Shown here: one piece after another, positions 15,846 through 40,021 of the stretch
Layout of the letters: the number at the start of each line of letters is the position of its first letter
How positions within the stretch are numbered: position 1 is the stretch's first letter
From: Veterinaerplatzvirus T145P1
Sequence record: OZ035793.1
Length of the DNA stretch: 45,509 nt
Direction: 5' to 3' (one strand)
The notes under the pieces: generated by a model
Database searches by the model: none
Told to the model about the DNA's origin: nothing
Seen by the model: only the letters and a program-made list of their open reading frames with translations
Made by a program: the position numbers and the translations under genes

Positions 15846-18800
15846 ATGGCACAAATGATCAAAACAAACATGAGGCTTTGTGATATGGCTGAAGATATTA
15901 AGATTTATGGTGCTAAGGGTGGTAGCCAGAAGCAGCACCAACCAGTGGAACAAGAAGACAACCTGATTTCATTAAACAAGGTCAAGGTATTACTTGCGGT
16001 TGCTGACGGCGAGGTTGACCCTAACTTCTCAATGAAAGATTTATACCTTGCTGACGTTCCGGTGCAAAACCAGGATGGTAGCTACAACTATGATGGTGTT
16101 CGCGCTGAGTTCCGTGCTGGCACGCAGTATCAGGACTATATCGCCGGGCTTGACGGTGCTAACTCAGAGATTCAGGCATCCAGAGAAATCAAGAACGATA
16201 CCCCGTACATCATTGCGGTTAACAATACTCAGCTTTCAGCAATTCGAGTTAAGCTATTTTGGCCTCGACTGGTTAAGCAAGAAAACAACGGAGACCTGAA
16301 CGGAACAACTTGCGAGTACGCAATTGACCTTTCTGTTAATGGTGGTGCTTACCAGGAATACACTCGCGGAGTTGCTAACGGCAAGACAACTACAGGTTAC
16401 GACCGAAGCATTCGCGTAAACCTTCCGGCAGAGTTTGATAGTGCGCTTGTTCGCATCCGTAAGATTACAGCTGACTCAACGAGCAGCACACTGGTTAACG
16501 GAATGCAGATTACAACCTATCAGGAAGTAATCGACGCCAAATTCCGCTACCCGCTTACGGCTCTGGTCTATGTTGAGTTTGGTTCTGACTTGTTCCCTAA
16601 CGGCATCCCGACAATCTCAATAAAGAAGCGTTGGAAGCTAATTCAGGTACCGACAAACTACGACCCGGAGACAAGGACTTACAGCGGGACATGGAATGGC
16701 TTATTCAAGATGGCATGGTCGAATAACCCGGCATGGGTTCTCTATGACCTGGTGACAAACCGACGCTATGGGCTTGACCAGCGAGAGTTGGGTGTAGAGA
16801 TTGATAAATGGGGCTTGTATGAAGCCGCGCAATTCTGTGACCAGATGGTTCCAGATGGTAAGGGTGGTTTAGAGCCGCGTTACCTTTGCGATATGGTTGT
16901 GCAAAACAAGGTTGAGGCCTACACGCTAATTCGTGATATCTGCTCAATCTTCCGTGGTCTGACTTTCTATGACGGTGAAAAGATTGGTATCGTGGTTGAT
17001 AAGCCTCGCAACCCATCTTACATCTTCACCAATGATAACGTTGTAAACGGATTGTTCAGTCGAACCTTTGCCAGTGATAAAAGCCTTTACACCACGGCAA
17101 ACGTCCAGTTTGATGATGTAGAGAACAACTATCAACAGGATGTTGAGCCGGTATTTGAATTAGAGGCAACTCGTCGTTTTGGATTTAACCCTGTAGATTT
17201 AACTGCGATTGGATGCACTCGCAGAAGTGAAGCAAACAGACGTGGCAGATGGCTCCTGAAAACAAACCTGAGAAGCGAAACTATCAGCTTCACTACTGGG
17301 TTGGAAGGTATGATTCCGATGATTGGCGAGGTAATTGCGGTCAATGACGCTGCATGGTCTAGCAACTATCAGTTAAACCTTTCCGGTCGTATTGAGTCAG
17401 TTCAGGGGTTGCAGGTTTTTACCCCTTTTAAAGTTGACGCAGCGCCTGGTGACAGAATTCTTCTGAACAAGCCAGACGGAAGTCCAGAGGCAAGAACTAT
17501 TGCCAGCGTTTCGGAGGATGGAAGAACAATCAACCTTAACACTGCTTTTAGTTTTGTAGCTCAACCTGACACTGTTTTCGCAATCGATAAGGATAATCTC
17601 GCGCTTCAACAGTATGTTGTGACCGGGATTCAAAAAGCAGATTCTGATGGCTCTGATTCATTCCAGTATACGATTACCGCAGTAGAGTATGACCCGAACA
17701 AGTATGATGAGATTGATTATGGTGTAAACATTGTTGACCGCCCAACATCAATTGTTGAGCCTGATAGATTGTCGCCACCTGAGAACTTAACAGTATCAAG
17801 CTACAGTAAGGTTGTTCAAGGGTTGTCAGTTGAGACGATGGTTATCGGATGGGATAAAGCTCCATACGCTAAAACATACAATGTTCAGTGGAGGAAAGAA
17901 AATGGCAACTGGATTAACGTACCCAGAACGGCAAGTACAGAGGTTGATATCGAAGGTATTTACGCAGGAATCTATGACGTTAGGGTTCGCAGCGTATCAG
18001 ATACTGAAAACGTGTCTGCCTGGTCTGGCATTGTAACCGTATCGCTAACTGGCAAGATTGGTCGCCCATCGGCACCTACTGTTATCACGGCATCAACAGA
18101 TGAGGTATTTGGCATCCGTGTTAAGTGGGGTTTCCCTGAGGGTTCTGGTGACACTGCTTACACTGAACTTCAGCAGGTCCCTGATAATGGTGACGGCACT
18201 TACAATCCTGATAACGCAAGTTTGCTGACGTTACTGCCTTATCCAGCCTATGAATACTGGCACACGCCAATTCAGCCGGGTAAGGTCATCTGGTATCGCG
18301 CAAGATTGATTGACAGAATCGGCAATACCTCTGATTGGTCTTATTTCGCTAGAGGTATGAGTACTGACGACGCCAACATCATCAACGATTATATCAAGGT
18401 TGATATTGAAGGCTCGGAGGGTTTTAAATACCTAGAGCAGAATGCGATTCAAAAGAACCAGGACATTCAGAATCAAGCCGAGGCAATCATCGAGAACGCG
18501 CTGGCTAATGATGGCGATGTTCGTCGCATGACTAAGGAGAACGGCAAGCGTAAGGCTGAATATGTTCAGGCTGTGAATCTCATAGCTGATGAAACTCAGG
18601 CGCGTGTAGAGGCTCTTACGCAGCTTAAAGCGCAGATTGATGATGAGGTTGTTTCATCGATTACAGAAGTTCAGACTGCATTAGCAACAGAGACAGAAGC
18701 AAGAACTACTGCGGATACGGCTCTATCAGCAAGACTTGGTGAAAACGAGGCTGCACTAAACCAGAAGCTGGACGCTTTTTCTAACGCCACATCGACTGGT

Positions 18801-19271
18801 GTACAGTATGGGATTAGTCTTGGCCTGAAATACAACGGACAGACTTATTCATCCGGCATGAGTATGGAGCTTGTTGGCACTGGTGGGAATGTTCGCAGTC
18901 AGTTCATCTTTGACGCAAACAGATTCGCAATCAGTAACGGCATTGGTTCTGGTTCCGGTCAGTGGCAACTCCCATTCGTTGTAGAGAATGGAAACGTAAT
19001 AATCCAAAGCGCAGTAATCGGCGATGGCTCAATTACTAACGCTAAGATTGGTAATATAATTTCATCAAATGATTATGTGGCAGGCTCTCAGGGATGGGCG
19101 ATACTGAAAAGTGGTGCGTCAGAGTTCAATAACACAACTGTAAGGGGCAATCTTTACGCTAACAATGGTAACTTTGCTTTTAACGGAACCAATAACACGG
19201 TTCAGATTAACAATAACGGAATCACTGTAAACTTACCGAACGGAGGAAGAGTGGTAGTTGGAGTGTGGTAA
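15846..19271 (+). CDS. central tail fiber / host specificity protein (lambda gpJ-like)
   Basis: 1141 aa; recalled similarity to lambda J in the region VPTNYDPETRTYSGTWNGLFKMAWSNNPAWVLYDL...CDQMVPDGKGGLEPRY; start may instead be ATG 15885. Confidence 0.85.
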   Translation: MAQMIKTNMRLCDMAEDIKIYGAKGGSQKQHQPVEQEDNLISLNKVKVLLAVADGEVDPNFSMKDLYLADVPVQNQDGSYNYDGVRAEFRAGTQYQDYIAGLDGANSEIQASREIKNDTPYIIAVNNTQLSAIRVKLFWPRLVKQENNGDLNGTTCEYAIDLSVNGGAYQEYTRGVANGKTTTGYDRSIRVNLPAEFDSALVRIRKITADSTSSTLVNGMQITTYQEVIDAKFRYPLTALVYVEFGSDLFPNGIPTISIKKRWKLIQVPTNYDPETRTYSGTWNGLFKMAWSNNPAWVLYDLVTNRRYGLDQRELGVEIDKWGLYEAAQFCDQMVPDGKGGLEPRYLCDMVVQNKVEAYTLIRDICSIFRGLTFYDGEKIGIVVDKPRNPSYIFTNDNVVNGLFSRTFASDKSLYTTANVQFDDVENNYQQDVEPVFELEATRRFGFNPVDLTAIGCTRRSEANRRGRWLLKTNLRSETISFTTGLEGMIPMIGEVIAVNDAAWSSNYQLNLSGRIESVQGLQVFTPFKVDAAPGDRILLNKPDGSPEARTIASVSEDGRTINLNTAFSFVAQPDTVFAIDKDNLALQQYVVTGIQKADSDGSDSFQYTITAVEYDPNKYDEIDYGVNIVDRPTSIVEPDRLSPPENLTVSSYSKVVQGLSVETMVIGWDKAPYAKTYNVQWRKENGNWINVPRTASTEVDIEGIYAGIYDVRVRSVSDTENVSAWSGIVTVSLTGKIGRPSAPTVITASTDEVFGIRVKWGFPEGSGDTAYTELQQVPDNGDGTYNPDNASLLTLLPYPAYEYWHTPIQPGKVIWYRARLIDRIGNTSDWSYFARGMSTDDANIINDYIKVDIEGSEGFKYLEQNAIQKNQDIQNQAEAIIENALANDGDVRRMTKENGKRKAEYVQAVNLIADETQARVEALTQLKAQIDDEVVSSITEVQTALATETEARTTADTALSARLGENEAALNQKLDAFSNATSTGVQYGISLGLKYNGQTYSSGMSMELVGTGGNVRSQFIFDANRFAISNGIGSGSGQWQLPFVVENGNVIIQSAVIGDGSITNAKIGNIISSNDYVAGSQGWAILKSGASEFNNTTVRGNLYANNGNFAFNGTNNTVQINNNGITVNLPNGGRVVVGVW

Positions 19272-19278
19272 TAAATAA

Positions 19279-19304
19279 AGCCCCTTAATTGGGGCTTTTC
19301 TTTT
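19279..19304. terminator. bidirectional intrinsic terminator
   Basis: AGCCCC-ttaatt-GGGGCT flanked by A-rich (5') and T-rich (3') tracts, between convergent genes. Confidence 0.7.
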
Positions 19305-20274
19305 AGTAGAAGTTTGGGATAAATGGAAGTGCCATTGATATGTTCGTGTCGAAAGGAAACTGAGCGCCTGTCTGAGTTGAGTAGTTACCTATTACAGATC
19401 CAGGAACAGCCCTAACGGAGCCTCCAGACATGCAAACACCCTTGTATCGTAAGTTGTTATACCCTCCGGTAACTCTAGTTGTAGCGCCGCACCTAAGCAG
19501 CGGGAAGAAACCACCATTTATTGACTGATATCCATTGCTTATTTGTATAAATCCACCAAGAACGAATGGGCGGCGAACACTTGAAAAAACAATCTGACCA
19601 GAACTATTTGACATTGTGAGTCCAGGCCCGGCCGGTGGTGGTTCATTCCTGAATATCACCAGCTGAACATGGGTACTTGCCGCAACATCATCTGTACCTC
19701 CGTAGGTTATATCCCTACACCATATTGTTGATCCATCTGATTCAAGTGATACGTTTGGATTATCCCACTTGCCGAATGGTATTCCGCTAACTGGTAGCGA
19801 TGCTGCACCGTTAACCTGTATGCCCCCAACCCAGGCCGCAGACATTAGCCGCGAGTTGCTTGATATAGCAAGGAAATCAGTTGAGTTCTCAACAAGTATT
19901 CCAGGACTTGATGAGGATGAAGCCGGTAGTATCTCAAAGCAATTACCAGCAAAGTCAATTATTCGACCATTAGCACCATTGAAGTTGCTGATAGTTATCC
20001 TGCCAGTTCCGTCATTTACCTTTTGAAACCCGTTCATGTAATAAACTTCGGGTATAACATCGTAAGCGTCAACGTGGACTGCCTTCGTTGGTAGGCAGAA
20101 AGCCGTAGAGCCAGGAAACATTGTCAATCCAAAATCCCACGAGATTGCCGGGGTTGAAAGTCCATTGGTATTTATTGATCCAGTCACAGCAGGTGCCCTT
20201 AATCCTGCCGTGATTTCCATCGCTGGTCTTCCGTCATTGAGGTCAATCAATATACCCTGCGGCATTATTTCCAC
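19303..20274 (-). CDS. hypothetical protein, possibly tail-fiber/receptor-associated
   Basis: 323 aa Gly/Ser/Asn-rich; convergent with J, co-oriented and overlapping with upstream lipoprotein gene. Confidence 0.5.
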
Positions 20275-20510: not shown

Positions 20511-20690
20511 TTTGTATTCCTTATTAAGTTGTTTCGTTTTGATGTAGTAATAATACAACCGTCAGTGCGGAATGTCTTTAGCTATTCGTGCTATTGCATA
20601 CACGTAACCGATGTAACTCGATGTATACAATCTCATCCGCGGAAAATGATATACGCACTGTTACGCAAATTTACGCATTGGTTACATTAA

Positions 20691-20750
20691 AATATCTATA
20701 TATATCAACCTTTTACTCTTATTATTATTATATATATATTACTGTGTATA
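20691..20750. repeat. AT-rich long direct repeat copy A with (TTA)4 tract
   Basis: AATATCTATATATATCAACCTTTTACTCTTATTATTATTA...ACTGTGTATA, near-identical to 39953-40021. Confidence 0.85.
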
Positions 20751-21055
20751 TCATGTAACTACTTCTATAGAGTGTTCCGGTTATAATTTTAATATCATGT
20801 GGATTTATACAGTATTGCGCTGCAGCTATACCAATGCACCCTCAGCAATGAATGATATACACGATATACACGATGGTTACATTGAGCTATAGCTGGGCCG
20901 AGATGCCAAAAAACGTAACTAGTGCCAATGCCTACACGGAATTACAAGGATTCACGTGTAAACTTAAATCAACGATTGGCAAAACCAATTGGACTGGTTA
21001 CGGTGCCGAATATATAGTTAACTCATCGAAAGCAAACAACCAGAGAGATACAGAA

Positions 21056-23645: not shown

Positions 23646-24071
23646 ATGCACGTAATTACTGGTCAGATTCGACGCGCTCCATTCACTAAAGAAGGTCATA
23701 ATGCTAATGGTACCTGGAAAATGTTTGCGGTTGATTTGAGTGAGCGATACAAAGATAAAGATGGTCAGACTCAGTATAGTAACTATCGCGCAGTCTTCTT
23801 CGCGAAAGAGTCAATGTTAGATTGGTATAATGAAGCTTTTCAAGAGGGTAAAGTTGTTAGCGTTAGCGCAGAGACTCTTTCTGTTGATGTTAGAGATAAA
23901 GATGGCAAGACTTACGTTACTGTCAACATGAACAATCCTAGACTTGAGTTTAGTCAGCGCGGTGAAGGTGGCGTGCAGCAGCAACCTAGACAACAGCAAC
24001 AAGCACAACAGCAACAACAGAATCAACAGCCAAAACAGCAAAAGCAATTCGAAGATGATATTCCTTTCTAA
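23646..24071 (+). CDS. ssb: single-stranded DNA-binding protein
   Basis: Gln-rich linker and C-terminal acidic tail ending DDIPF, the SSB signature. Confidence 0.85.
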   Translation: MHVITGQIRRAPFTKEGHNANGTWKMFAVDLSERYKDKDGQTQYSNYRAVFFAKESMLDWYNEAFQEGKVVSVSAETLSVDVRDKDGKTYVTVNMNNPRLEFSQRGEGGVQQQPRQQQQAQQQQQNQQPKQQKQFEDDIPF

Positions 24072-24075
24072 AGAT

Positions 24076-24100
24076 AAGGCCCCTTTTGGGGCCTTTTTTA
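24076..24100. terminator. bidirectional intrinsic terminator
   Basis: AAGGCCCC-tttt-GGGGCCTT plus T tract, between convergent SSB and tailspike genes. Confidence 0.7.
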
Positions 24101-26683
24101 TTAACCTATTTTAGTGTAAGTCCATTGGTATGTTGCAGCTCCCTTGGCAGTTATCCCGACAGTTCTTCCACTTACATCCATTGAAGTGAAAGCGCCAGTT
24201 TTTGTAATTGTTATTGATGATGTGGAACCATCAAAAAGTACGTCAGCAATTACACTATAGTTAGGTCCAGCACCAGTAACCCAGGTCGAAACCTTGTATA
24301 AACCAGCGTTGTTTGGCAACTCAAAAAGACCAGTTGAAACATTCGCCTGAACAGCCATCGCGCCCTTTCCGGTGTACACACCGTCAGTTTTAAGACCTAA
24401 TGATGAATATGTTTGCTTATAGCCACCAATGATGGCACCACCCATAGGTTCAGTAAACCAGTTCACATTACCCTGACTAACAACAGATATCGCTGGAGAC
24501 CCCCCTTTAGCTGACTGAAACCTACCGCTTAAAATGTCAATTCTAGATGCTGAGTCCTGGGCGTAGATAGTTACAGGATACCCACCAGAACCAGTGTAAA
24601 CCAAGCCGTTATCATTAATGTCATCTTCAGACGAGTCAATGATTACATGGGAAGTTCCAGACGCCTTGATGAACGAAACAACACCGCTAGAACCAGCACC
24701 TGTTGTTCTAACTTCATTCTTCCATGATGTTAGGCCTGAAATTCTGCCATTTGAGTTATTAAACCTAATCAGGCAACAATCTTGCGATCCGTTGGTGTCA
24801 ATAATGTTACCTTCAACGTCCATCCCTAGTATGTTTACGCTATGGCTGTTGATGAAGTTAATCCCAGCACCACCGTAAGAACCAGATGTTGATGATATAT
24901 TACTGGCATCCATTGCGCAGTTAATCATTGTAACGCTCATTACCGAACCAAATTCATAAGGTGAAATGCAATCTGATGCGTAACAAGTCTCAAGCAATAT
25001 TGTCGTTCCTGTCGCCTTTATGAATCCAGTCCTGCAATTCCTGGCCCAAACATTCTGTAGCTTAGTCTGGTATGTTCCAGTGGTGTCCGTGTAGCAACCC
25101 CATGCTCCATGGACTGTGCAATCTTTGATACATGAATTTTCTAGCCCTGTTGCAGAACCAACATTAGAAACGAAGTTAAATGCTATCTTTTGATCATTCC
25201 CTGATGCTGAGGTAGGTGTAGTGCCTGGGTTATAAAAAATGTAAAGTCCCTCAATAAACACTTGATACATTCTTATGTTTTGCGCATCACCCTGAACCAG
25301 GGCGAATAGGTTTATGTTCCCATCAACTGAGATAAATGTTTGCGCCCTGTTAATTTGGTTTGTTCCCTCGCCAATAATTCTTGTACTGTTGCCAATCCTC
25401 ACCGTCCTGTTAATGAACATAAAACCTTTTGGTATGTATACAGTTTTACCGGTATTAACTGCCGCCTGAAGCGCAACTGCGTCAAGTGACTCGTTAAGGT
25501 TTGATGCAAATGGATAAACAAACCGCGCATCCTCAATTGTCGAGAATTTAGATGAAAGAGGAACTAAAGTACCATTGTTTGTAGCACCAAAATCCATGAC
25601 GTTAACAAAGTCACCAAGTTTACTATCCTTACTCCTTTCTACAAATGAGGCCAATGTAGATTTGTAATTCATCGAACTGAATTGTGATTTAGCCTCTGTC
25701 TTTGAATAAACATCTGATCTTGGGTAAACCTCTGATTTTGAATAAACATCAAGCAAACCCCTAGCTCTTTCAGCAGTAGCGCCGCCAACCGACTTCCCGC
25801 CTTCAACCATAATGTATTCGCGTAAGTAGAAGTTTCTTGATCCTTTAGCGCCCGTCATCCTGAGGTGAGTAGCCCTATATGATGAATCAGAATTCAATGC
25901 CGGATATATATCAATCTCATAAGAGCCTTGAGCTCCACTTGTGCCCCTAACACATATAAAAAGCGTAGCGTTGGCTGTAGTGTATGTCGCAGCTAGTGAT
26001 GCTGGAACGTTTGTCATGCTAGATACTACAACTCGATAATTACCACCACTTTTAAATTCAACTTGCTGCCAATCCAATGATGGCATAGCTATTGTCGATG
26101 TGCTTGCGATACCCTCATTGGCTAGAGTAACCAAAGTTGCAGCATCACCAGCGTTGGCAATGACATTAACTGTGTTGTTGTATGCCTCCTGCGCACTACT
26201 TGCGCTTGATTCAGCCTGAGCCTTGCTTGTAGCGGCAGCTTGCTGGCTGGCAGATGCAGCCGATTCGCTTGAAGCCGCATTTGTTTCGCTTGCCTTCGCC
26301 TCATCAACTAATCGTTGTAACTTATCGAAATCAAAATCACCAGATTCAGCCAACTCAACAAGTGACGCAACCTCAGTTTCACGTGACTGATAGTAACGAA
26401 GAGTTTCCGCAACATCCTGAGCTAGCCCCTGAACGGTAATTCCATCATGCGCAAGGATAGCGTAACCAGTTCCAGCAGGAACAGTTTCGGAGTTAGGGTT
26501 GTAAACATTAATCTGCGTATCGCTGATAATTTCTGAGATGGTGTAAATCTGTACTGGTTCAGTTTTAAATACAATGGTTGCACCTACGCGAATCAGTGTA
26601 AGAGGTGCTTTCCATGTTGTCCCGACGCCAGTCACCTCACCACTTGCTGCTAGAGAAGCTGTTCCTGAGTCATAAATTGCCAT
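24101..26683 (-). CDS. tailspike / tail fiber with beta-helix depolymerase-like domain
   Basis: Start trimmed to ATG 26683 (RBS ggag); N-terminal anchor domain, Ser/Ala-rich linker, long Gly/Asn/Thr/Ser-rich repetitive region typical of right-handed beta-helix. Confidence 0.65.
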   Translation of the reverse strand: MAIYDSGTASLAASGEVTGVGTTWKAPLTLIRVGATIVFKTEPVQIYTISEIISDTQINVYNPNSETVPAGTGYAILAHDGITVQGLAQDVAETLRYYQSRETEVASLVELAESGDFDFDKLQRLVDEAKASETNAASSESAASASQQAAATSKAQAESSASSAQEAYNNTVNVIANAGDAATLVTLANEGIASTSTIAMPSLDWQQVEFKSGGNYRVVVSSMTNVPASLAATYTTANATLFICVRGTSGAQGSYEIDIYPALNSDSSYRATHLRMTGAKGSRNFYLREYIMVEGGKSVGGATAERARGLLDVYSKSEVYPRSDVYSKTEAKSQFSSMNYKSTLASFVERSKDSKLGDFVNVMDFGATNNGTLVPLSSKFSTIEDARFVYPFASNLNESLDAVALQAAVNTGKTVYIPKGFMFINRTVRIGNSTRIIGEGTNQINRAQTFISVDGNINLFALVQGDAQNIRMYQVFIEGLYIFYNPGTTPTSASGNDQKIAFNFVSNVGSATGLENSCIKDCTVHGAWGCYTDTTGTYQTKLQNVWARNCRTGFIKATGTTILLETCYASDCISPYEFGSVMSVTMINCAMDASNISSTSGSYGGAGINFINSHSVNILGMDVEGNIIDTNGSQDCCLIRFNNSNGRISGLTSWKNEVRTTGAGSSGVVSFIKASGTSHVIIDSSEDDINDNGLVYTGSGGYPVTIYAQDSASRIDILSGRFQSAKGGSPAISVVSQGNVNWFTEPMGGAIIGGYKQTYSSLGLKTDGVYTGKGAMAVQANVSTGLFELPNNAGLYKVSTWVTGAGPNYSVIADVLFDGSTSSITITKTGAFTSMDVSGRTVGITAKGAATYQWTYTKIG

Positions 26684-26705
26684 TGTGTAGAGTCTCCATT
26701 TGTAA

Positions 26706-26725
26706 AATAGCACGAATTGCTAAAG
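26706..26725. promoter_or_regulatory. palindrome copy AATAGCACGAATTGCTAAAG without + strand -10
   Basis: Lies between the primase terminator and the tailspike start on the - strand; - strand TACAAT at 26729-26734. Confidence 0.4.
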
Positions 26726-26749
26726 TGGATTGTAGCATCTTTGAGTCAT

Positions 26750-26770
26750 AAAAAAACCTCCCGAAGGAGG
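26750..26770 (-). terminator. intrinsic terminator after primase gene
   Basis: - strand CCTCC-ttcg-GGAGG plus T7. Confidence 0.7.
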
Positions 26771-27697
26771 TTAGTCTAGTAATTCGCTCGCCTTGTATAT
26801 TCGCTTTCTTATTCCTGATTTGAAGTGGTTATCATTATTTGGCATTACAACATCAAGATTGCGATCGTCAGCAACGGCGAGTAAATCAAAATCGCTGCGA
26901 GTACAAGCGATGCGTAACTTGTAGTTTCTAAGCGCGTAAGCAACCATTTCCATGTTGTAACTGGAGTGGCAAACAAGCACACAGCGGTTCCCAGTAGCAA
27001 TGTGAACGCGATAGCCATCAATGAAATTATCGACCAGATAAGCGTACTCATCATCCTTAAAGGAACCAATAACAGAAACAGACTGGCGAGAATAATCTTT
27101 TGCAGCATAACTAACATCTCCCTCCTCATTGATAAACATTACATTGCACATCTCTTCTGATATGCCGTCACTATAAGCCATAAAGCACGGAACTGCGTGG
27201 ATTAATTCACCTGATTTCGTCCTGCCAACATCAAAACCGAACTCGCTATAGATACCCTCGTATGTACTGAGAGGAGTTGATTCTACTCTTTCCGTCCTTT
27301 CCATTATCTCTAAGCATCTTTCGTGATCAATCTGAGCGCCCATTTTGTATGGTGATGTTCTTGAAGCTCTTTTGTTTGCTTTTGATATAACCTCTACTGG
27401 AACGAGATTCAGCCAATCACCAAGCGTATCTATTGTTTCACTATAACTCATTCCAGAACACTTCATTACCCAACCAACACCAGAATCATTTCCACACTGG
27501 TTGCATATTGCTGCGCCATTTCCCTTTTCTTGACCTAACTCATCAGTGAAGCGAAACCTATCCTTGCCAAAGCAGTAAGGGCACGGACCATGTTTCTTGC
27601 TGAGATTCTCCTTTGTCCATCCAAGATGCGATGAGTAGAACTCACTCCACATCCCTTTCATCTTGGCTATCACTTCGTTCTTATCATGGTGACTCAT
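26771..27697 (-). CDS. DNA primase (zinc-binding, putative)
   Basis: Start trimmed to ATG 27697 (RBS ggagg); CPYC...CNQC zinc-ribbon near N-terminus; followed by intrinsic terminator. Confidence 0.6.
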   Translation of the reverse strand: MSHHDKNEVIAKMKGMWSEFYSSHLGWTKENLSKKHGPCPYCFGKDRFRFTDELGQEKGNGAAICNQCGNDSGVGWVMKCSGMSYSETIDTLGDWLNLVPVEVISKANKRASRTSPYKMGAQIDHERCLEIMERTERVESTPLSTYEGIYSEFGFDVGRTKSGELIHAVPCFMAYSDGISEEMCNVMFINEEGDVSYAAKDYSRQSVSVIGSFKDDEYAYLVDNFIDGYRVHIATGNRCVLVCHSSYNMEMVAYALRNYKLRIACTRSDFDLLAVADDRNLDVVMPNNDNHFKSGIRKRIYKASELLD

Positions 27698-27752
27698 AAT
27701 TACCTCCATAAACAATAAAGGCACTATACATAATGCAAAGTGCCATTGTTTA

Positions 27753-28232
27753 TCAAATCGTGCTGTTTTGCTCTTTCTTCTTTTGGTTCTCTAATTTTAT
27801 CTTGCGCCATGAACGACACTCTGGCTTAGTGGCTAATTCAGCCTCAGTGACGACTCGCAGCATATGGCGCTTTTTGCACCGAAGTGTCAGCGGTTTCCCG
27901 TTGCCGTCGAATTGCAGGTCTGGTCGGCAGAATGTAGCGCGAAAACCTTCTCCATTTCGCTTATAGTAGTTGTGAGAAAGTTGAGCCCCACGCGCAGAAA
28001 TCATACCGCGCTTAAACCATTCTTCTACAGCCTGTGGTGTTACCTTTAACTGCTTTGCGATATTCGCCTTTGTGCCGAAGAAATCAAGAACTATCTCTAG
28101 CCGCGCGCGTAGCCCGGCTCTTACTTCATCTTTTAAAACATAGTAGCCTGAAGGTCGTTTACGTTGCTTTTTGTCTTCGGTGCGGATGGTTCCGTTATTG
28201 CCGTTAATTGTTCGCTTGTCGACTGTATTCAT
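27753..28232 (-). CDS. helix-turn-helix DNA-binding protein (candidate transcription regulator)
   Basis: Basic 159 aa protein with HTH-like segment KANIAKQLKVTPQAVEEWFKRG; first gene of the - strand operon, next to divergent promoters. Confidence 0.5.
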   Translation of the reverse strand: MNTVDKRTINGNNGTIRTEDKKQRKRPSGYYVLKDEVRAGLRARLEIVLDFFGTKANIAKQLKVTPQAVEEWFKRGMISARGAQLSHNYYKRNGEGFRATFCRPDLQFDGNGKPLTLRCKKRHMLRVVTEAELATKPECRSWRKIKLENQKKKEQNSTI

Positions 28233-28243
28233 TTCATTACCTC

Positions 28244-28288
28244 AATAGCATTTTTTGTTAAAAGTCATCCTGATTTGATGGTATCATT
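28244..28288 (+). promoter_or_regulatory. composite promoter element (helicase operon)
   Basis: AATAGCATTTTTTGTTAAAA then about 22 bp to ATCATT. Confidence 0.45.
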
Positions 28289-28314
28289 GTACTCAATTAA
28301 ACGCTACAAGACAA
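28286..28314 (-). promoter_or_regulatory. sigma70-like promoter for the HTH-primase-tailspike operon
   Basis: - strand TTGTCT-17-TACAAT, overlapping face-to-face with the + strand helicase promoter. Confidence 0.45.
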
Positions 28315-28333
28315 TTTTTATAGGAATTTAGAT

Positions 28334-30328
28334 ATGTTGCCTATCGAGAAGCTGGTTGCAAATTTCGATAAAGAAAGAATCAAACAGATTCAGAAAGACT
28401 ATCAGTTTGGAGAGATAACCCCTTACGAATTCCAGTGCGTGACATTTGATGCAATCGGAAAGGCTATTGGCAAGTACGAGGCACCATTTATCGCAGACCT
28501 TTCAGTATCTGCGGGTAAGACAATCATTCTTGCCATGATTGGTAAGCGCATGGAGCAGCTTGGGCTTCCCTATATGGTTCTCTCTCGCCAGTCAGAGATT
28601 ATCAGCCAGAACTCAGAAGAGCTTCGTAATTTCGGCATACGTAATAGCGTCTATTGCGCTGGCCTTAACGTCAAATCAGTTTACTACCCAACTATAGTGG
28701 CCAGTGAGGGTACGGCAGCCAACGGCTTGTTTAAGGGGCTTGGTGACTATGTTCCGGCAGTTATCGCTATAGATGAGTGTCACATGGTCGATCACATGGA
28801 TATCGTGGAGGCTGAAGAGAATGAAGAAACATTTGAGCAAATGAGCACAAAGAAAGGCGATATGGTTTTTAAGGATGGCGTAAACACAGGATTGCTTGGT
28901 ACTGGTCGTGCGCAGTACACGCTAATTATCACCGAGATGAAACGTCGTTGTCGTGAGAAGTACGGGCGTGAGCTTCGTATATTCGGTCTTACTGGCAGCC
29001 CGTATCGTAACAACGATCATATCGTCGTTAGCAACCCAAACATCCGTGGATTCTGGCGCAAAACAGTGATTCAGGTGCCAACAAATTATCTGGTTGATTT
29101 GGGCTTCGTTGTTCCTACTGTTTATGGTGAAGTTGGTGACCTGGGTTATGACCTTAGTGAGTTTGCGCCAGACGGAAGCGATGGCGTTAAAGACTTCAGC
29201 AAGAAAGAAATGGATGCAATGGCTGCAAAGATTCACGACAACCAATCAATGACCCAAAAGATAATGGGTTTTGTTGTGAAAATACTCGAGACTCGTAACG
29301 CTGCATTGGTAACATGCGCTGGCAAACTCCATTGTGATGAGGCTGCTGCGGCACTACCAGATGGATACCCTTACGCCATCATCACAGACTCTACGGGAGA
29401 GAGGAAGCGCAGGGAGATTCTGGCTGATTGCCAGACAGGTAAGTACAAAATAATATTCCAGATTGGTTGTCTTACTACGGGCGTAAACCAGCCGCTGTGG
29501 GATACTAGCGTCATACTACGCAAGATTGGCAGCCTAACGCTTATGATTCAGCTTCTTGGTAGGGGGATGCGCAAACTTAAGAGATCTCATATTGATGCTG
29601 GTTTTCATAAAGAAGATCACCTTGTGCTGGATTTTGCTGGCGCACTTGATGATATGGCTGAGCTTTACTTTGACCCAATTATTGAAGAGATTCAGGCTGA
29701 GAAGTTTAAATCCTCAAGAAAAGGTGGCGATGAGGTTCGTCAGTGTCCGCAATGTGGATATGAAAATTCCCCATTCGCTCGTCGCTGTAGCAATAAGATT
29801 GATGGCGTTAGATGCGATCACTTCTTTCAGTTCACAATTTGCGAAGACATTACCGACGCGCAAACTAAATCGGTAATTAAAAAGGGTTGTGGCGCTCGCA
29901 ATGACATAGCAGCAAAGGTTTGCAGGGAATGCGGCGAGATGCTTAAAGACCCAAATGCTAACCTGACTGGCAAAATGTATCGTCGTGGTGATTACCTTCG
30001 TGTTTATGATTTTCAAGTTGGGTTAAGTAAGAATCAGACAGGCATTGTAGTTAAGTACAATATAATGGCTCATAACGGAGAGAGATTTAACGCTTGGGAG
30101 TTCTTTAATCCAGAATCAGACCATCGAGTTTGCAGTGTGCTCTGGAAGAACTTTTGCTTAGCTCATATTGAGAATCGCACGGAAGCGGCACGAATTGGCA
30201 GGCTTAAAAATGCCAGAATGATTATGACTAACGTAGATAAGTTCCGTGCGCCAGTTCAGGTTACGCATCGCCGGAATGCAAAAGGAAAGGACGTGATAGC
30301 GTTTAAGAATTTTGGAGAATTATTATGA
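28334..30328 (+). CDS. SF2 DNA helicase with C-terminal zinc ribbons
   Basis: Walker A SAGKT, DExH-like DECH motif, C-terminal CxxC pairs. Confidence 0.8.
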   Translation: MLPIEKLVANFDKERIKQIQKDYQFGEITPYEFQCVTFDAIGKAIGKYEAPFIADLSVSAGKTIILAMIGKRMEQLGLPYMVLSRQSEIISQNSEELRNFGIRNSVYCAGLNVKSVYYPTIVASEGTAANGLFKGLGDYVPAVIAIDECHMVDHMDIVEAEENEETFEQMSTKKGDMVFKDGVNTGLLGTGRAQYTLIITEMKRRCREKYGRELRIFGLTGSPYRNNDHIVVSNPNIRGFWRKTVIQVPTNYLVDLGFVVPTVYGEVGDLGYDLSEFAPDGSDGVKDFSKKEMDAMAAKIHDNQSMTQKIMGFVVKILETRNAALVTCAGKLHCDEAAAALPDGYPYAIITDSTGERKRREILADCQTGKYKIIFQIGCLTTGVNQPLWDTSVILRKIGSLTLMIQLLGRGMRKLKRSHIDAGFHKEDHLVLDFAGALDDMAELYFDPIIEEIQAEKFKSSRKGGDEVRQCPQCGYENSPFARRCSNKIDGVRCDHFFQFTICEDITDAQTKSVIKKGCGARNDIAAKVCRECGEMLKDPNANLTGKMYRRGDYLRVYDFQVGLSKNQTGIVVKYNIMAHNGERFNAWEFFNPESDHRVCSVLWKNFCLAHIENRTEAARIGRLKNARMIMTNVDKFRAPVQVTHRRNAKGKDVIAFKNFGELL

Positions 30329-32426: not shown

Positions 32427-32678
32427 ATGTTGGGTTTAGATTTTCAGCCAGAGCATTACGATTTAGTATATGGACAAAGTGGCTCTAAGTTTAGAGCGAT
32501 ACCTATTGCTGACTGGTTCCCTCCTGACTATGTTGATGTGAACGCAAAAACTAAAGAAGGTAAGTGGGTGCAGATATACTACTCACCGGCATGTGGAAAC
32601 CTTTGCATGACTGACCTTGACAAAAAATTAGCAATTAGTGCTGATGTGATCGACTACTGGTTGAAAGAAGTTGAATGA
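32427..32678 (+). CDS. hypothetical protein
   Basis: RBS aagga. Confidence 0.5.
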   Translation: MLGLDFQPEHYDLVYGQSGSKFRAIPIADWFPPDYVDVNAKTKEGKWVQIYYSPACGNLCMTDLDKKLAISADVIDYWLKEVE

Positions 32679-39777: not shown

Positions 39778-39952
39778 ATTAAGTGGTGAGTGAGTGAATG
39801 AAAGATGGATGGACTACCATACAAGTTGATTTTTACCAATCTATGGGAGCCTCACGGATATACGCGTATCCTCCGTATACTCAGTGTCGTCACAAAAGTT
39901 AGTGACCACTAACCTACGTTTTTACGCGATATATACACACGATATACAATAT

Positions 39953-40021
39953 AATATCTATATATATCAACCTTTTACTTTATTATTATTATTATTATTA
40001 TATATATGTATACTGTGTATA
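39953..40021. repeat. AT-rich long direct repeat copy B with (TTA)7 tract
   Basis: Same sequence as 20691-20750 except the microsatellite length and 3 substitutions. Confidence 0.85.

Follow-up and report, generated by a model that had tools for sequence, protein, structure and literature searches.

The window analysed here is the whole 45,509-nt stretch of DNA of the phage T145P1 (OZ035793.1), a Veterinaerplatzvirus of the Drexlerviridae. Its minus strand carries a long ORF flanked by the SSB and primase genes, with a hairpin terminator and one copy of a repeated palindrome upstream of it. The region is 99.9% identical in DNA to OZ035786.1, a T145P1-type record. The features referred to below are as follows.

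15846..19271, plus strand: J-like gene (Pfam FNIII-A_GpJ and Phage_Tail_Tip matches)
24076..24095, both strands: bidirectional-looking hairpin terminator where the tailspike and SSB genes converge (folding energy)
24101..26683, minus strand: tailspike / lateral tail fiber coding sequence, 860 aa and stop (ORF, position in relatives)
24104..24448, minus strand: C-terminal beta-sandwich domain, aa 746-860 (AF2 pLDDT 83-92, all-beta)
24449..25615, minus strand: right-handed parallel beta-helix, aa 357-745, putative glycan-binding and glycan-cleaving domain
25616..25804, minus strand: neck, aa 294-356, recombination junction (two DVYSK repeats at aa 312 and 324, low pLDDT)
25805..26098, minus strand: variable connection domain, beta, aa 196-293
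26099..26383, minus strand: Ser/Ala-rich helical bundle, aa 101-195 (AF2 helices at 84-190, composition)
26384..26683, minus strand: N-terminal anchor domain, aa 1-100 (beta-rich, aa 1-78 folded; tblastn, Depo32 alignment)
26694..26697, minus strand: Shine-Dalgarno sequence GGAG, 10 nt 5' of the ATG (read directly; a ribosome-binding site is annotated at the equivalent spot in SU57)
26708..26722, minus strand: palindrome TAGCA-N5-TGCTA, a T1-like 21-nt repeat in inverted orientation with respect to the tailspike gene
26729..26737, minus strand: inferred extended -10 promoter TGcTACAAT (read from sequence, conserved in relatives)
26750..26772, minus strand: intrinsic terminator of the regulator-primase transcript (-12.3 kcal/mol, z = -3.0 against shuffles)
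26771..27697, minus strand: DNA primase, directly upstream (Pfam Zn_Ribbon_Prim, E 6.6e-12; synteny with relatives)
27751-27765, minus strand: the primase's own repeat-type promoter
27753..28232, minus strand: Cro/P22-like HTH regulator, Rtp52 / T1 gp23 homologue (Pfam P22_Cro 26.9 bits, below the cut-off of 30.2)

The product read from the ATG at 26683 has 860 residues and a mass of 90.9 kDa. The longest version of the ORF (24101..26713, minus strand, 870 aa) begins at a GTG upstream of this ATG, but that start was dropped because the relatives, including Depo32, align from residue 1 at the ATG methionine and because the Shine-Dalgarno sequence precedes that ATG. Profile searches matched the product to PHROG 24092 (E 3e-127) and PHROG 8649. 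The gene sits at the 3' end of a leftward primase/recombination gene string, outside the tail morphogenesis block, and the J-like gene is ~5 kb away on the opposite strand; the coordinates therefore agree with the first-pass annotation, which had described an 860-aa minus-strand protein downstream of the primase and away from the J-like gene. Its further claim that the gene lies inside the replication operon did not hold, since the gene comes after the terminator of that operon. Positional equivalents are SU57_00050, bas02_0034, rtp50 and T1 orf26, and the order SSB-tailspike-primase-regulator-helicase is identical in SU57, JeanPiccard, Rtp and T1. Among the IMG/VR relatives with enough upstream sequence, the upstream neighbour on the same strand was the primase in 54 of 75 and the SSB gene in the other 21. 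The position among replication genes is thus the standard published layout of the Drexlerviridae and no peculiarity of T145P1: the BASEL (2021, PMC8594841, S1C Fig) and SU57 (2020, PMC7718038) papers already describe where the gene lies, its preceding terminator and the conservation of its 5' end, and the BASEL "lateral tail fiber" genes, T1 gp26, Rtp50 and SU57_00050 occupy the equivalent slot (PMC8594841, PMC7718038).

The regulator-primase transcript would end at the hairpin at 26772-26750, where the stem-loop AACCTCCTTCGGGAGGTT (26772..26755, minus strand) is followed by seven T (26756-26750) and overlaps the primase stop codon. It is conserved in relatives with compensatory changes in the stem, is annotated in SU57, T1 and ETEP102, and has a T-run of at least 6 in 67 of the 71 IMG/VR upstream regions. 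The earlier placement of the terminator at 26750-26770 was essentially right. At the other end of the gene, the hairpin at 24076-24095 folds with -16 kcal/mol and a weak T tract on the minus strand and with -17 kcal/mol and a strong T tract on the plus strand; an equivalent is annotated in SU57 and T1.

Between the primase terminator and the gene, 62 of the 71 distinct upstream regions from IMG/VR contain TGnTAnnnT, a count that overstates independence because these sequences are mutually related. The element is kept in 10/10 aligned relatives, with changes only at non-critical positions, and in the Webervirus HZJ32, and TTGCAT-17-CATAAT replaces it in some relatives. The form TGNTAYAAT occurs 7 times in the whole window, counting both strands. 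No recognisable -35 element accompanies the tailspike promoter, and a consensus promoter scan missed it. Because the terminator is followed by a conserved promoter, the sequence makes it likely that the tailspike gene is a separate transcription unit, as the first-pass annotation had suggested, and its transcript would start from a sigma-70 extended -10 promoter that belongs to this gene alone (26737-26729). In the literature on transcription timing in T1-like phages no transcriptome was found.

The window contains 9 exact copies of TAGCA-N5-TGCTA, where 0.08 would be expected by chance; the palindrome TAGCACGAATTGCTA at 26708-26722, which an earlier reading had put at 26706-26725, is one of them. 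All 18 of the other oriented repeat copies have a -10 hexamer 21-23 nt downstream, and the tailspike copy is the only perfect copy without one on either strand. A repeat-type promoter for the tailspike was rejected on this ground; the copy has the inverted orientation with respect to the gene and does not constitute a promoter of the normal repeat type. A role as an RNA hairpin in the tailspike leader was likewise unsupported (-3.8 kcal/mol, z -0.36). The palindrome is nearly invariant in T1, Rtp, SU57 and TH21, is present in 36 of 71 relatives, and overlaps the inferred tailspike transcription start; we infer that it is an operator at about +1 to +15 of the transcript. The Cro/P22-like regulator, whose homologues are annotated as transcriptional regulators in SU57, Rtp and T1, is a candidate binder, and the 21-nt repeat over the start may serve as its operator and set the timing of expression. 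At the 18 promoters the centre of the palindrome lies ~42 nt upstream of the inferred start and the -35 element is absent, whereas at the promoters of the tailspike and of the regulator itself it lies over or just after the start. A tentative and rather doubtful extension of this is that the repeat core aaATAGCACnnnTTGCTAAA is the operator of the regulator throughout: the regulator would behave as a class II activator at the 18 promoters and as a brake at the tailspike promoter and its own. If true, the tailspike would have a timing distinct from that of the surrounding replication genes and from that of other structural genes. Webervirus carries this repeat at its helicase and primase promoters, but the palindrome is absent upstream of its tailspike; since it shares the repeat at those two promoters, it was ruled out as an out-group for covariation of regulator and repeat.

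At the protein level, the N-terminal anchor domain described from the sequence was borne out: by tblastn it is present in 904 phage records, nearly all of them genomes of 43-53 kb and including T1 and Klebsiella Webervirus, and it is 80-100% identical in relatives whose other sequence diverges. Residues 1-100 align with residues 1-101 of the Klebsiella depolymerase Depo32, and the homology extends through the helical bundle (phmmer E 8.4e-42, aa 1-198). Of the Ser/Ala-rich linker proposed earlier, the composition stands (Ser+Ala = 43.7% in aa 120-190), whereas a loose linker does not, as the segment is predicted to be helical and is homologous to the helical bundle of Depo32. The bundle (aa 101-195) is a probable trimeric coiled coil; in the AF2 monomer its helices at 84-190 have low pLDDT, which is compatible with an obligate oligomer.

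Beyond the bundle the gene is mosaic. Identity in 40-aa blocks shows a conserved 5' end and a variable distal part, and the DNA matches of most relatives are confined to the first ~400 nt. Pfam gave nothing for aa 196-343 or aa 742-860. The beta-helix and C-terminal domain together (the C-module) are 96.5% identical to JeanPiccard, whereas the middle module is 25-47% identical, and near-identity to JeanPiccard (93% in DNA) starts at nt 25714, which is aa 324; DVYSKxE in the neck is nearly invariant in alignment A3. The C-terminal beta-sandwich travels with the beta-helix as a single module in JeanPiccard, SU57 and 2725-N35. These comparisons show clearly that the C-module has been exchanged as a block among relatives, which fits the earlier proposal of a modular, exchangeable receptor-binding protein.

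The Gly/Asn/Thr-rich region had been read as a right-handed beta-helix, and composition (Gly+Asn+Thr = 28.5% in aa 357-745, 33% in aa 746-860) and predicted fold agree on this, a right-handed parallel beta-helix being found in the predicted model. The best Foldseek matches were tailspikes, namely those of LKA1 (gp49), phi297 (gp61), Sf6 and CBA120, and aa 355-448 are similar in sequence to the LKA1 gp49 and phi297 tailspikes (E 1e-12). LKA1 gp49 is an O-antigen lyase. Pfam PF12708 (Pect-lyase_RHGA_epim) stayed below its gathering cut-off in the tailspike (17.3 vs 27 bits, E 0.0042) and is carried by more distant homologues in the same search; PF13229 (Beta_helix) had no match in the tailspike, and the AlgE-type DPH motif was absent from its sequence when read directly. 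Only G366, D401 and G438 are invariant in alignment A1, from which catalytic residues are not assignable, and D401 is part of the capping motif. PF13884 (Peptidase_S74 chaperone) was not found in the tailspike by Pfam, the C-terminus being a beta-sandwich behind the beta-helix, although some relatives that share the anchor do carry it. The position of this beta-sandwich may be analogous to that of the carbohydrate-binding module (CBM) of Depo32 (PMC10581125). In the literature on phages with the same C-module (611R6, 2725-N35, RobRod40 and the T145 phages) no target glycan was found.

The reading that we consider highly probable as a whole is that this gene encodes the lateral tailspike of a T1-like siphovirus, with the fold, adsorption role and private promoter set out here. 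The protein would be trimeric and attach to the tail tip by its anchor, and the beta-helix would bind and probably cleave a strain-specific surface polysaccharide (O-antigen or capsule), thereby providing a reversible first adsorption step and passage through the layer of glycan. Engagement of an outer-membrane protein would follow, by a separate receptor-binding protein whose gene lies downstream of the J-like gene; hosts that lack O-antigen, such as K-12, would not require the tailspike step. The BASEL paper describes the lateral tail fiber as a primary binder of glycan receptors (PMC8594841). Virion association in the family is supported indirectly by the KP36-like depolymerases with a conserved anchor (PMC10581125) and by a structural protein of 78 kDa that matches TLS Gp55 (PMC11447400). 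Against it stands cryo-EM of laboratory T1, a fibreless stock, which showed no lateral fibres (PMC11945409).

Whether the beta-helix is an enzyme is the part of this reading with the most serious competitor, namely that it is a non-catalytic adhesin, a receptor-binding spike that binds a glycan or another structure without cleaving it. The sub-threshold pectate-lyase-type Pfam model speaks for such an adhesin, as does the lack of any invariant acidic residue within the helix in alignment A1, where D401 belongs to the capping motif. However, active glycanases or lyases and phage depolymerases make up most of the structural neighbours with high scores, the beginning of the helix shows sequence homology to the LKA1 gp49 tailspike, and SU57, with a C-module 93.8% identical, forms haloed plaques, a phenotype that is suggestive but non-specific (PMC7718038). 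We consider a purely adhesive helix improbable; the tailspike beta-helix would bind and probably cleave a surface glycan, and the C-module is a candidate E. coli glycan depolymerase.

The gene could also be silent, or expressed only weakly by read-through, given the efficient terminator that stands before it. The strength and conservation of that terminator immediately upstream favour this, and promoter searches failed twice: the SU57 authors found none with BPROM and doubted that the tail spike gene is transcribed (PMC7718038), and the consensus scan of the window was also negative. Yet phages of different subfamilies retain TGnTAnnnT or TTGCAT-17-CATAAT in the stretch from the terminator to the start codon, and Webervirus, which has the SSB gene upstream of the tailspike in place of the primase, still keeps the promoter-like element with the tailspike gene. 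Moreover, the ORF is intact and clearly conserved in hundreds of genomes, and related proteins of this family work as depolymerases or are structural, so that a silent gene is very unlikely; judged from sequence, the conserved private promoter would speak to the doubt of the SU57 authors. Still less credible, to the point of being negligible, is the idea that a foreign tailspike cassette entered the replication region recently and in this phage alone, which would be a novel architecture. It could appeal to the C-terminal module, for which only nine phage records have a full-length match and a podovirus has a relative of 40% identity, and these two observations do show horizontal transfer of that module. 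The exchange is nevertheless restricted to the distal modules of a fixed gene, whose slot, anchor, terminator and promoter are common to T1, Rtp, SU57, JeanPiccard, AugustePiccard, ETEP102, P817, grams and 75 IMG/VR contigs, and the synteny data already refute the insertion.

For the Drexlerviridae the tailspike gene, its location and the swapping of its modules are textbook knowledge, and near-identical sequences have already been deposited and annotated. What is added here is small: the conserved extended -10 promoter behind the primase terminator, and the repeat spacing with the inverted tailspike copy. [quoted passage not shown] The module boundaries (anchor and bundle to ~aa 195; DVYSK junction at aa 312-328) are natural splice points for host-range swaps in T1-like phages.

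Among known systems, the L-shaped tail fibre pb1 of T5 and Stf of lambda are functional analogues, being dispensable lateral appendages of siphoviruses; such an appendage makes the first, reversible contact, after which the tip protein encounters its outer-membrane receptor (BASEL, PMC8594841). They differ in being fibrous and not beta-helical and in having genes in or beside the tail module, and pb1 has a C-terminal intramolecular chaperone (Peptidase_S74) that is absent from the tailspike described here. The podovirus O-antigen tailspikes LKA1 gp49 and phi297 gp61 (PDB 4RU4, 4RU5) and the tailspikes of Sf6 and CBA120 share the beta-helix fold, and the similarity in sequence to LKA1 gp49 and phi297 gp61 covers the first rungs and the cap; all four have other N-terminal adaptors, belong to other virus families and show 12-20% identity over the helix. 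The capsule depolymerases Depo32 / DpK2 of the Klebsiella Webervirus phages GH-K3 and RAD2 (PDB 7VYV, 7VZ3, 7LZJ) have no detectable homology of sequence in the beta-helix, and Depo32 differs in its proven K2 capsule specificity, and the Webervirus gene follows the SSB gene and not the primase and has no palindrome upstream.

Within the Drexlerviridae, T1 orf26 (CPTT1_053) and Rtp50 share the slot past the primase terminator, the anchor (54% identical in T1, ~96% in Rtp), and the inverted 21-nt repeat and TGnTAnnnT upstream. Their distal parts are unrelated in sequence and T1 has an extra small leader ORF annotated; Rtp50 is annotated as 'putative tail fiber with beta-helix fold'. SU57_00050 of vB_EcoD_SU57 has the same slot, preceding terminator and anchor and the 93.8% identical C-module, but is 777 aa long and has another module between anchor and beta-helix; its close 777-aa homologues (P0023; RobRod40 P0024) carry Pfam PF18668. 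The SU57 paper already remarks on the unusual tail spike position and the mosaic gene (PMC7718038). JeanPiccard (Bas02; bas02_0034, QXV80800.1) was isolated on K-12, a host without O-antigen, and this was counted against the reading proposed here. It also differs in the middle of the protein (aa ~100-320), in total length (842 aa vs 860 aa) and in the receptor-binding protein downstream of J, which is only 40% identical. It too is a Veterinaerplatzvirus with the gene in the SSB-primase slot, its anchor is ~90% identical, and the near-identity of beta-helix and C-terminal module extends over 516 aa.

The tailspike is encoded on the minus strand by an open reading frame that starts at 26713 (GTG) or 26683 (ATG) and ends with a stop codon at 24101-24103. 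The ATG start, preceded by GGAG at a distance of 10 nt, gives a product of 860 aa (90.9 kDa), and all homologues, the solved Klebsiella capsule depolymerase Depo32 included, align from this residue. The first-pass annotation had placed the gene at 24101-26770 on the minus strand, downstream of the primase and away from the J-like gene. Because the reading frame, its flanking genes and the J-like gene were located in those places, both the coordinates and the description are correct; the analysis bears out the observation and supports its interpretation.

15846-19271, strand opposite to the tailspike, J-like tip protein gene (Pfam FNIII-A_GpJ and Phage_Tail_Tip)
19303-20274, minus strand, receptor-binding protein gene, downstream of the J-like gene
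23646-24071, plus strand, SSB gene, convergent with the tailspike
26771-27697, minus strand, primase gene (Zn_Ribbon_Prim), upstream of the tailspike
27753-28232, minus strand, Cro-like regulator gene, upstream of the primase
28334-30328, divergent, helicase gene, beyond the regulator

An AlphaFold2 model built with 37 homologues as input (mean pLDDT 74) divides the protein as follows.

aa 1-78, beta-rich N-terminal domain
aa 84-190, long helices, low confidence as monomer
aa 198-292, compact beta domain, pLDDT ~80 (88-94 in a separate model)
aa 294-356, neck, poorly predicted, with two DVYSK repeats
aa 357-745, beta-solenoid, pLDDT ~90
aa 750-860, beta-sandwich

The proposed N-terminal anchor domain is borne out by the homology of aa 1-198 to Depo32/DpK2 (E 8e-42), in whose structure the equivalent part forms an anchor and a helical bundle (PMC10581125). 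A tblastn search with the anchor alone gave matches in 904 phage records (genome sizes 43-53 kb), from hosts that include Escherichia, Klebsiella, Shigella, Salmonella and Citrobacter. The Ser/Ala-rich stretch was also found (43.7% Ser+Ala over aa 120-190) and is modelled as long helices, and the middle domain bears only a loose resemblance to RBP connection or shoulder domains. The suggested right-handed beta-helix was recovered by structure prediction, with the phi297, LKA1, Sf6 and CBA120 tailspikes ranked at the top by Foldseek and sequence similarity of aa 355-448 to LKA1 gp49 and phi297 gp61 (E 1e-12). Pfam gave no above-threshold beta-helix match on the tailspike, PF12708 being sub-threshold only. 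The modelled protein thus has the beta-helix fold, but no catalytic residues could be assigned, so its enzymatic activity is putative.

Identity to relatives was compared per successive 40-aa block. The anchor was 80-100% identical in all relatives, aa ~100-320 were 25-47% identical in JeanPiccard and replaced by a different module in SU57, and aa ~345-860 were 95-100% identical in both. By tblastn, identity over the C-module (beta-helix plus beta-sandwich) was 96.5% for JeanPiccard and 93.8% for SU57. In most other relatives the match was limited to the first ~400 nt, comprising the intergenic region and ~105 codons. Beyond the genus, related C-modules occur in the tailspike of podovirus vB_EcoP-611R6 (40% identity) and in a Pectobacterium phage (34%). 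These alignments show receptor-binding modules shuffled on a fixed adaptor in the classical manner, and the claim of a modular, exchangeable protein holds. The second DVYSK repeat (nt 25714) is where near-identity to JeanPiccard DNA sets in. In the neck, tandem DVYSK(S/T)E motifs (25700-25750, minus strand; aa 312-328) coincide with this breakpoint and are nearly invariant across homologues whose modules otherwise differ. The motif is a probable hot spot of recombination at which modules are exchanged. A distant beta-helix homologue (27% identity, 62% of the C-module covered, E 1e-15 to 2e-16) is encoded by Vectrevirus T145P2 (OZ035747.1 / OZ035802.1, ~4.1-5.4 kb), whose name alone suggests that it shares host strain T145.

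The terminator claimed between primase and tailspike (26750-26770) corresponds to a hairpin at 26772-26755 followed by seven T (-12.3 kcal/mol, z -3.0), a good intrinsic terminator whose stem changes in a compensatory manner among relatives (CCTCC/GGAGG, CCCGC/GCGGG, CCGCC/GGCGG). An extended -10 element, TGcTACAAT (26737-26729), lies between it and the tailspike start codon. Ten aligned relatives, drawn from four subfamilies or genera, all keep TG and, within the hexamer, T, A and the last T; the remaining positions vary (TACAAT, TATAAT, TATACT, TATTAT, TAAAAT). Webervirus HZJ32 has TGcTATTAT at the equivalent place despite having SSB as the upstream gene. TGnTAnnnT occupied the site in 62 of 71 distinct IMG/VR upstream regions, most of the others having TTGCAT-17-CATAAT, and TGNTAYAAT occurs 7 times on both strands of the whole window. 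This conservation points to a private sigma-70 promoter for the tailspike, and together with the terminator it favors the separate transcriptional control that had been proposed.

The palindrome TAGCA-N5-TGCTA occurs in 9 exact copies in the window against 0.08 expected. A longer oriented repeat built around this core, aaATAGCACnnnTTGCTAAA, is the 21-nt direct repeat known from phage TLS, where 21 copies are oriented along transcription; the repeat is also present in T1, Rtp and Rogue1, and its function was explicitly called an open question (PMC11447400). Eighteen copies in the window point the same way as the genes downstream of them; the positions below are those of the first base of each 15-nt palindrome.

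Plus strand: 2117, 9294, 22881, 28246, 30742, 31783, 33892, 40937, 41234, 42244, 42771, 43281, 44148
Minus strand: 20579, 27751, 37435, 38217, 39652

In all 18 the palindrome is followed at 21-23 nt by a -10 hexamer (at least 5/6 matches; background frequency 1.2%), and none has a -35 hexamer at the normal distance. These promoter-like units consist of the repeat, a hexamer of TATAGT/TATAAT type, often TACC.CATCGAAACGA, and then an RBS and start codon. The spacing places the palindrome centre near -42, a geometry that would be typical of class II activator sites, and this fixed distance suggests that the units are activator-dependent promoters. The copy reported between primase and tailspike is indeed present and perfect, but in inverted orientation to the gene, and on neither strand is it followed by a -10 hexamer at 21-23 nt. 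It is instead placed over the inferred start site, 6 nt downstream of the extended -10 element, an arrangement that T1, Rtp, SU57, TH21 and others retain but that is absent from grams and Webervirus. Folding makes an RNA hairpin role unlikely. A near-perfect copy at 32629-32643 (1 mismatch) likewise has no -10 hexamer at the standard spacing, whichever strand is read.

The region 28233-28333 is a divergent control region between regulator and helicase. The regulator has its own canonical-looking, sigma-70-like promoter (TTGTCT-17-TACAAT, 28314-28286, minus strand), and the palindrome at 28246-28260 lies downstream of its inferred start while also serving the plus-strand helicase promoter, so the layout is possibly autoregulatory. 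It is a tentative and rather doubtful idea that the repeat is bound by the Cro-like regulator, which would activate the 18 promoters and brake those of the tailspike and of the regulator itself. Elsewhere, two 75-nt AT-rich direct repeats (20683-20757 and 39945-40019, 72% identical; TACATTAAAATATCTATATATATCAACC...) each occupy a long intergenic gap where transcription switches direction, and Webervirus HZJ32 (L011, ~2650-2800) has a similar AT-rich, TA-repeat stretch. These repeats may mark an origin or early promoters.

These comparisons show the homology, fold, modularity and synteny of the tailspike; its role in adsorption is proposed from the family literature (PMC8594841, PMC10581125). 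Trimers would be fixed by the anchor at the tail tip, and the beta-helix would bind and probably cleave a strain-specific surface polysaccharide, giving reversible primary adsorption before the separate receptor-binding protein meets the outer-membrane receptor. The tailspike should be dispensable on K-12, which is the isolation host of JeanPiccard and is infected by T145 phages too. SU57 forms haloed plaques (PMC7718038), which fits a depolymerase. The receptor-binding protein is only 40% identical to JeanPiccard allele bas02_0024, linked to LptD (PMC8594841), but the tailspike C-module is 96.5% identical, and so terminal receptor and primary-receptor module appear to reassort independently.

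T145 phages are sewage isolates on E. coli strain T145 (bioRxiv 10.1101/2024.11.07.622273), and Veterinaerplatzvirus belongs to Drexlerviridae, subfamily Braunvirinae. The tailspike region is 99.9% identical to T145P1-type records OZ035786.1 and OZ035765.1. A homologous gene occupies the identical slot, behind the terminator of the primase and in convergent orientation to SSB, in SU57 (SU57_00050, 'tail spike protein'), JeanPiccard (bas02_0034, 'lateral tail fiber protein'), Rtp (rtp50, 'putative tail fiber with beta-helix fold') and T1 (orf26). Among IMG/VR relatives with enough upstream sequence, the immediate same-strand upstream gene was primase in 54/75 and SSB in 21/75, and in Klebsiella Webervirus (HZJ32) it is SSB rather than primase. 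The primase (26771-27697, minus strand) is only ~56% identical to Rtp-like relatives and 44% to T1, whereas the intergenic region and anchor share 88-97% identity with Rtp-like phages; it is at the terminator, not within the primase, that the conserved block begins. The BASEL paper described a lateral tail fiber locus flanked by conserved recombination and primase/helicase genes (PMC8594841, S1C Fig), the gene being conserved at its far 5' end only (PMC8594841). The SU57 paper noted that its tail spike gene comes 'after the recombination block', is mosaic and has a terminator before it (PMC7718038). The position is thus the norm for the phage family. Only two points are mildly new, the conserved putative promoter private to the tailspike and the unusual position of the family repeat in front of it, and the tailspike is an ordinary, previously described member of a known family with near-identical sequences in GenBank.
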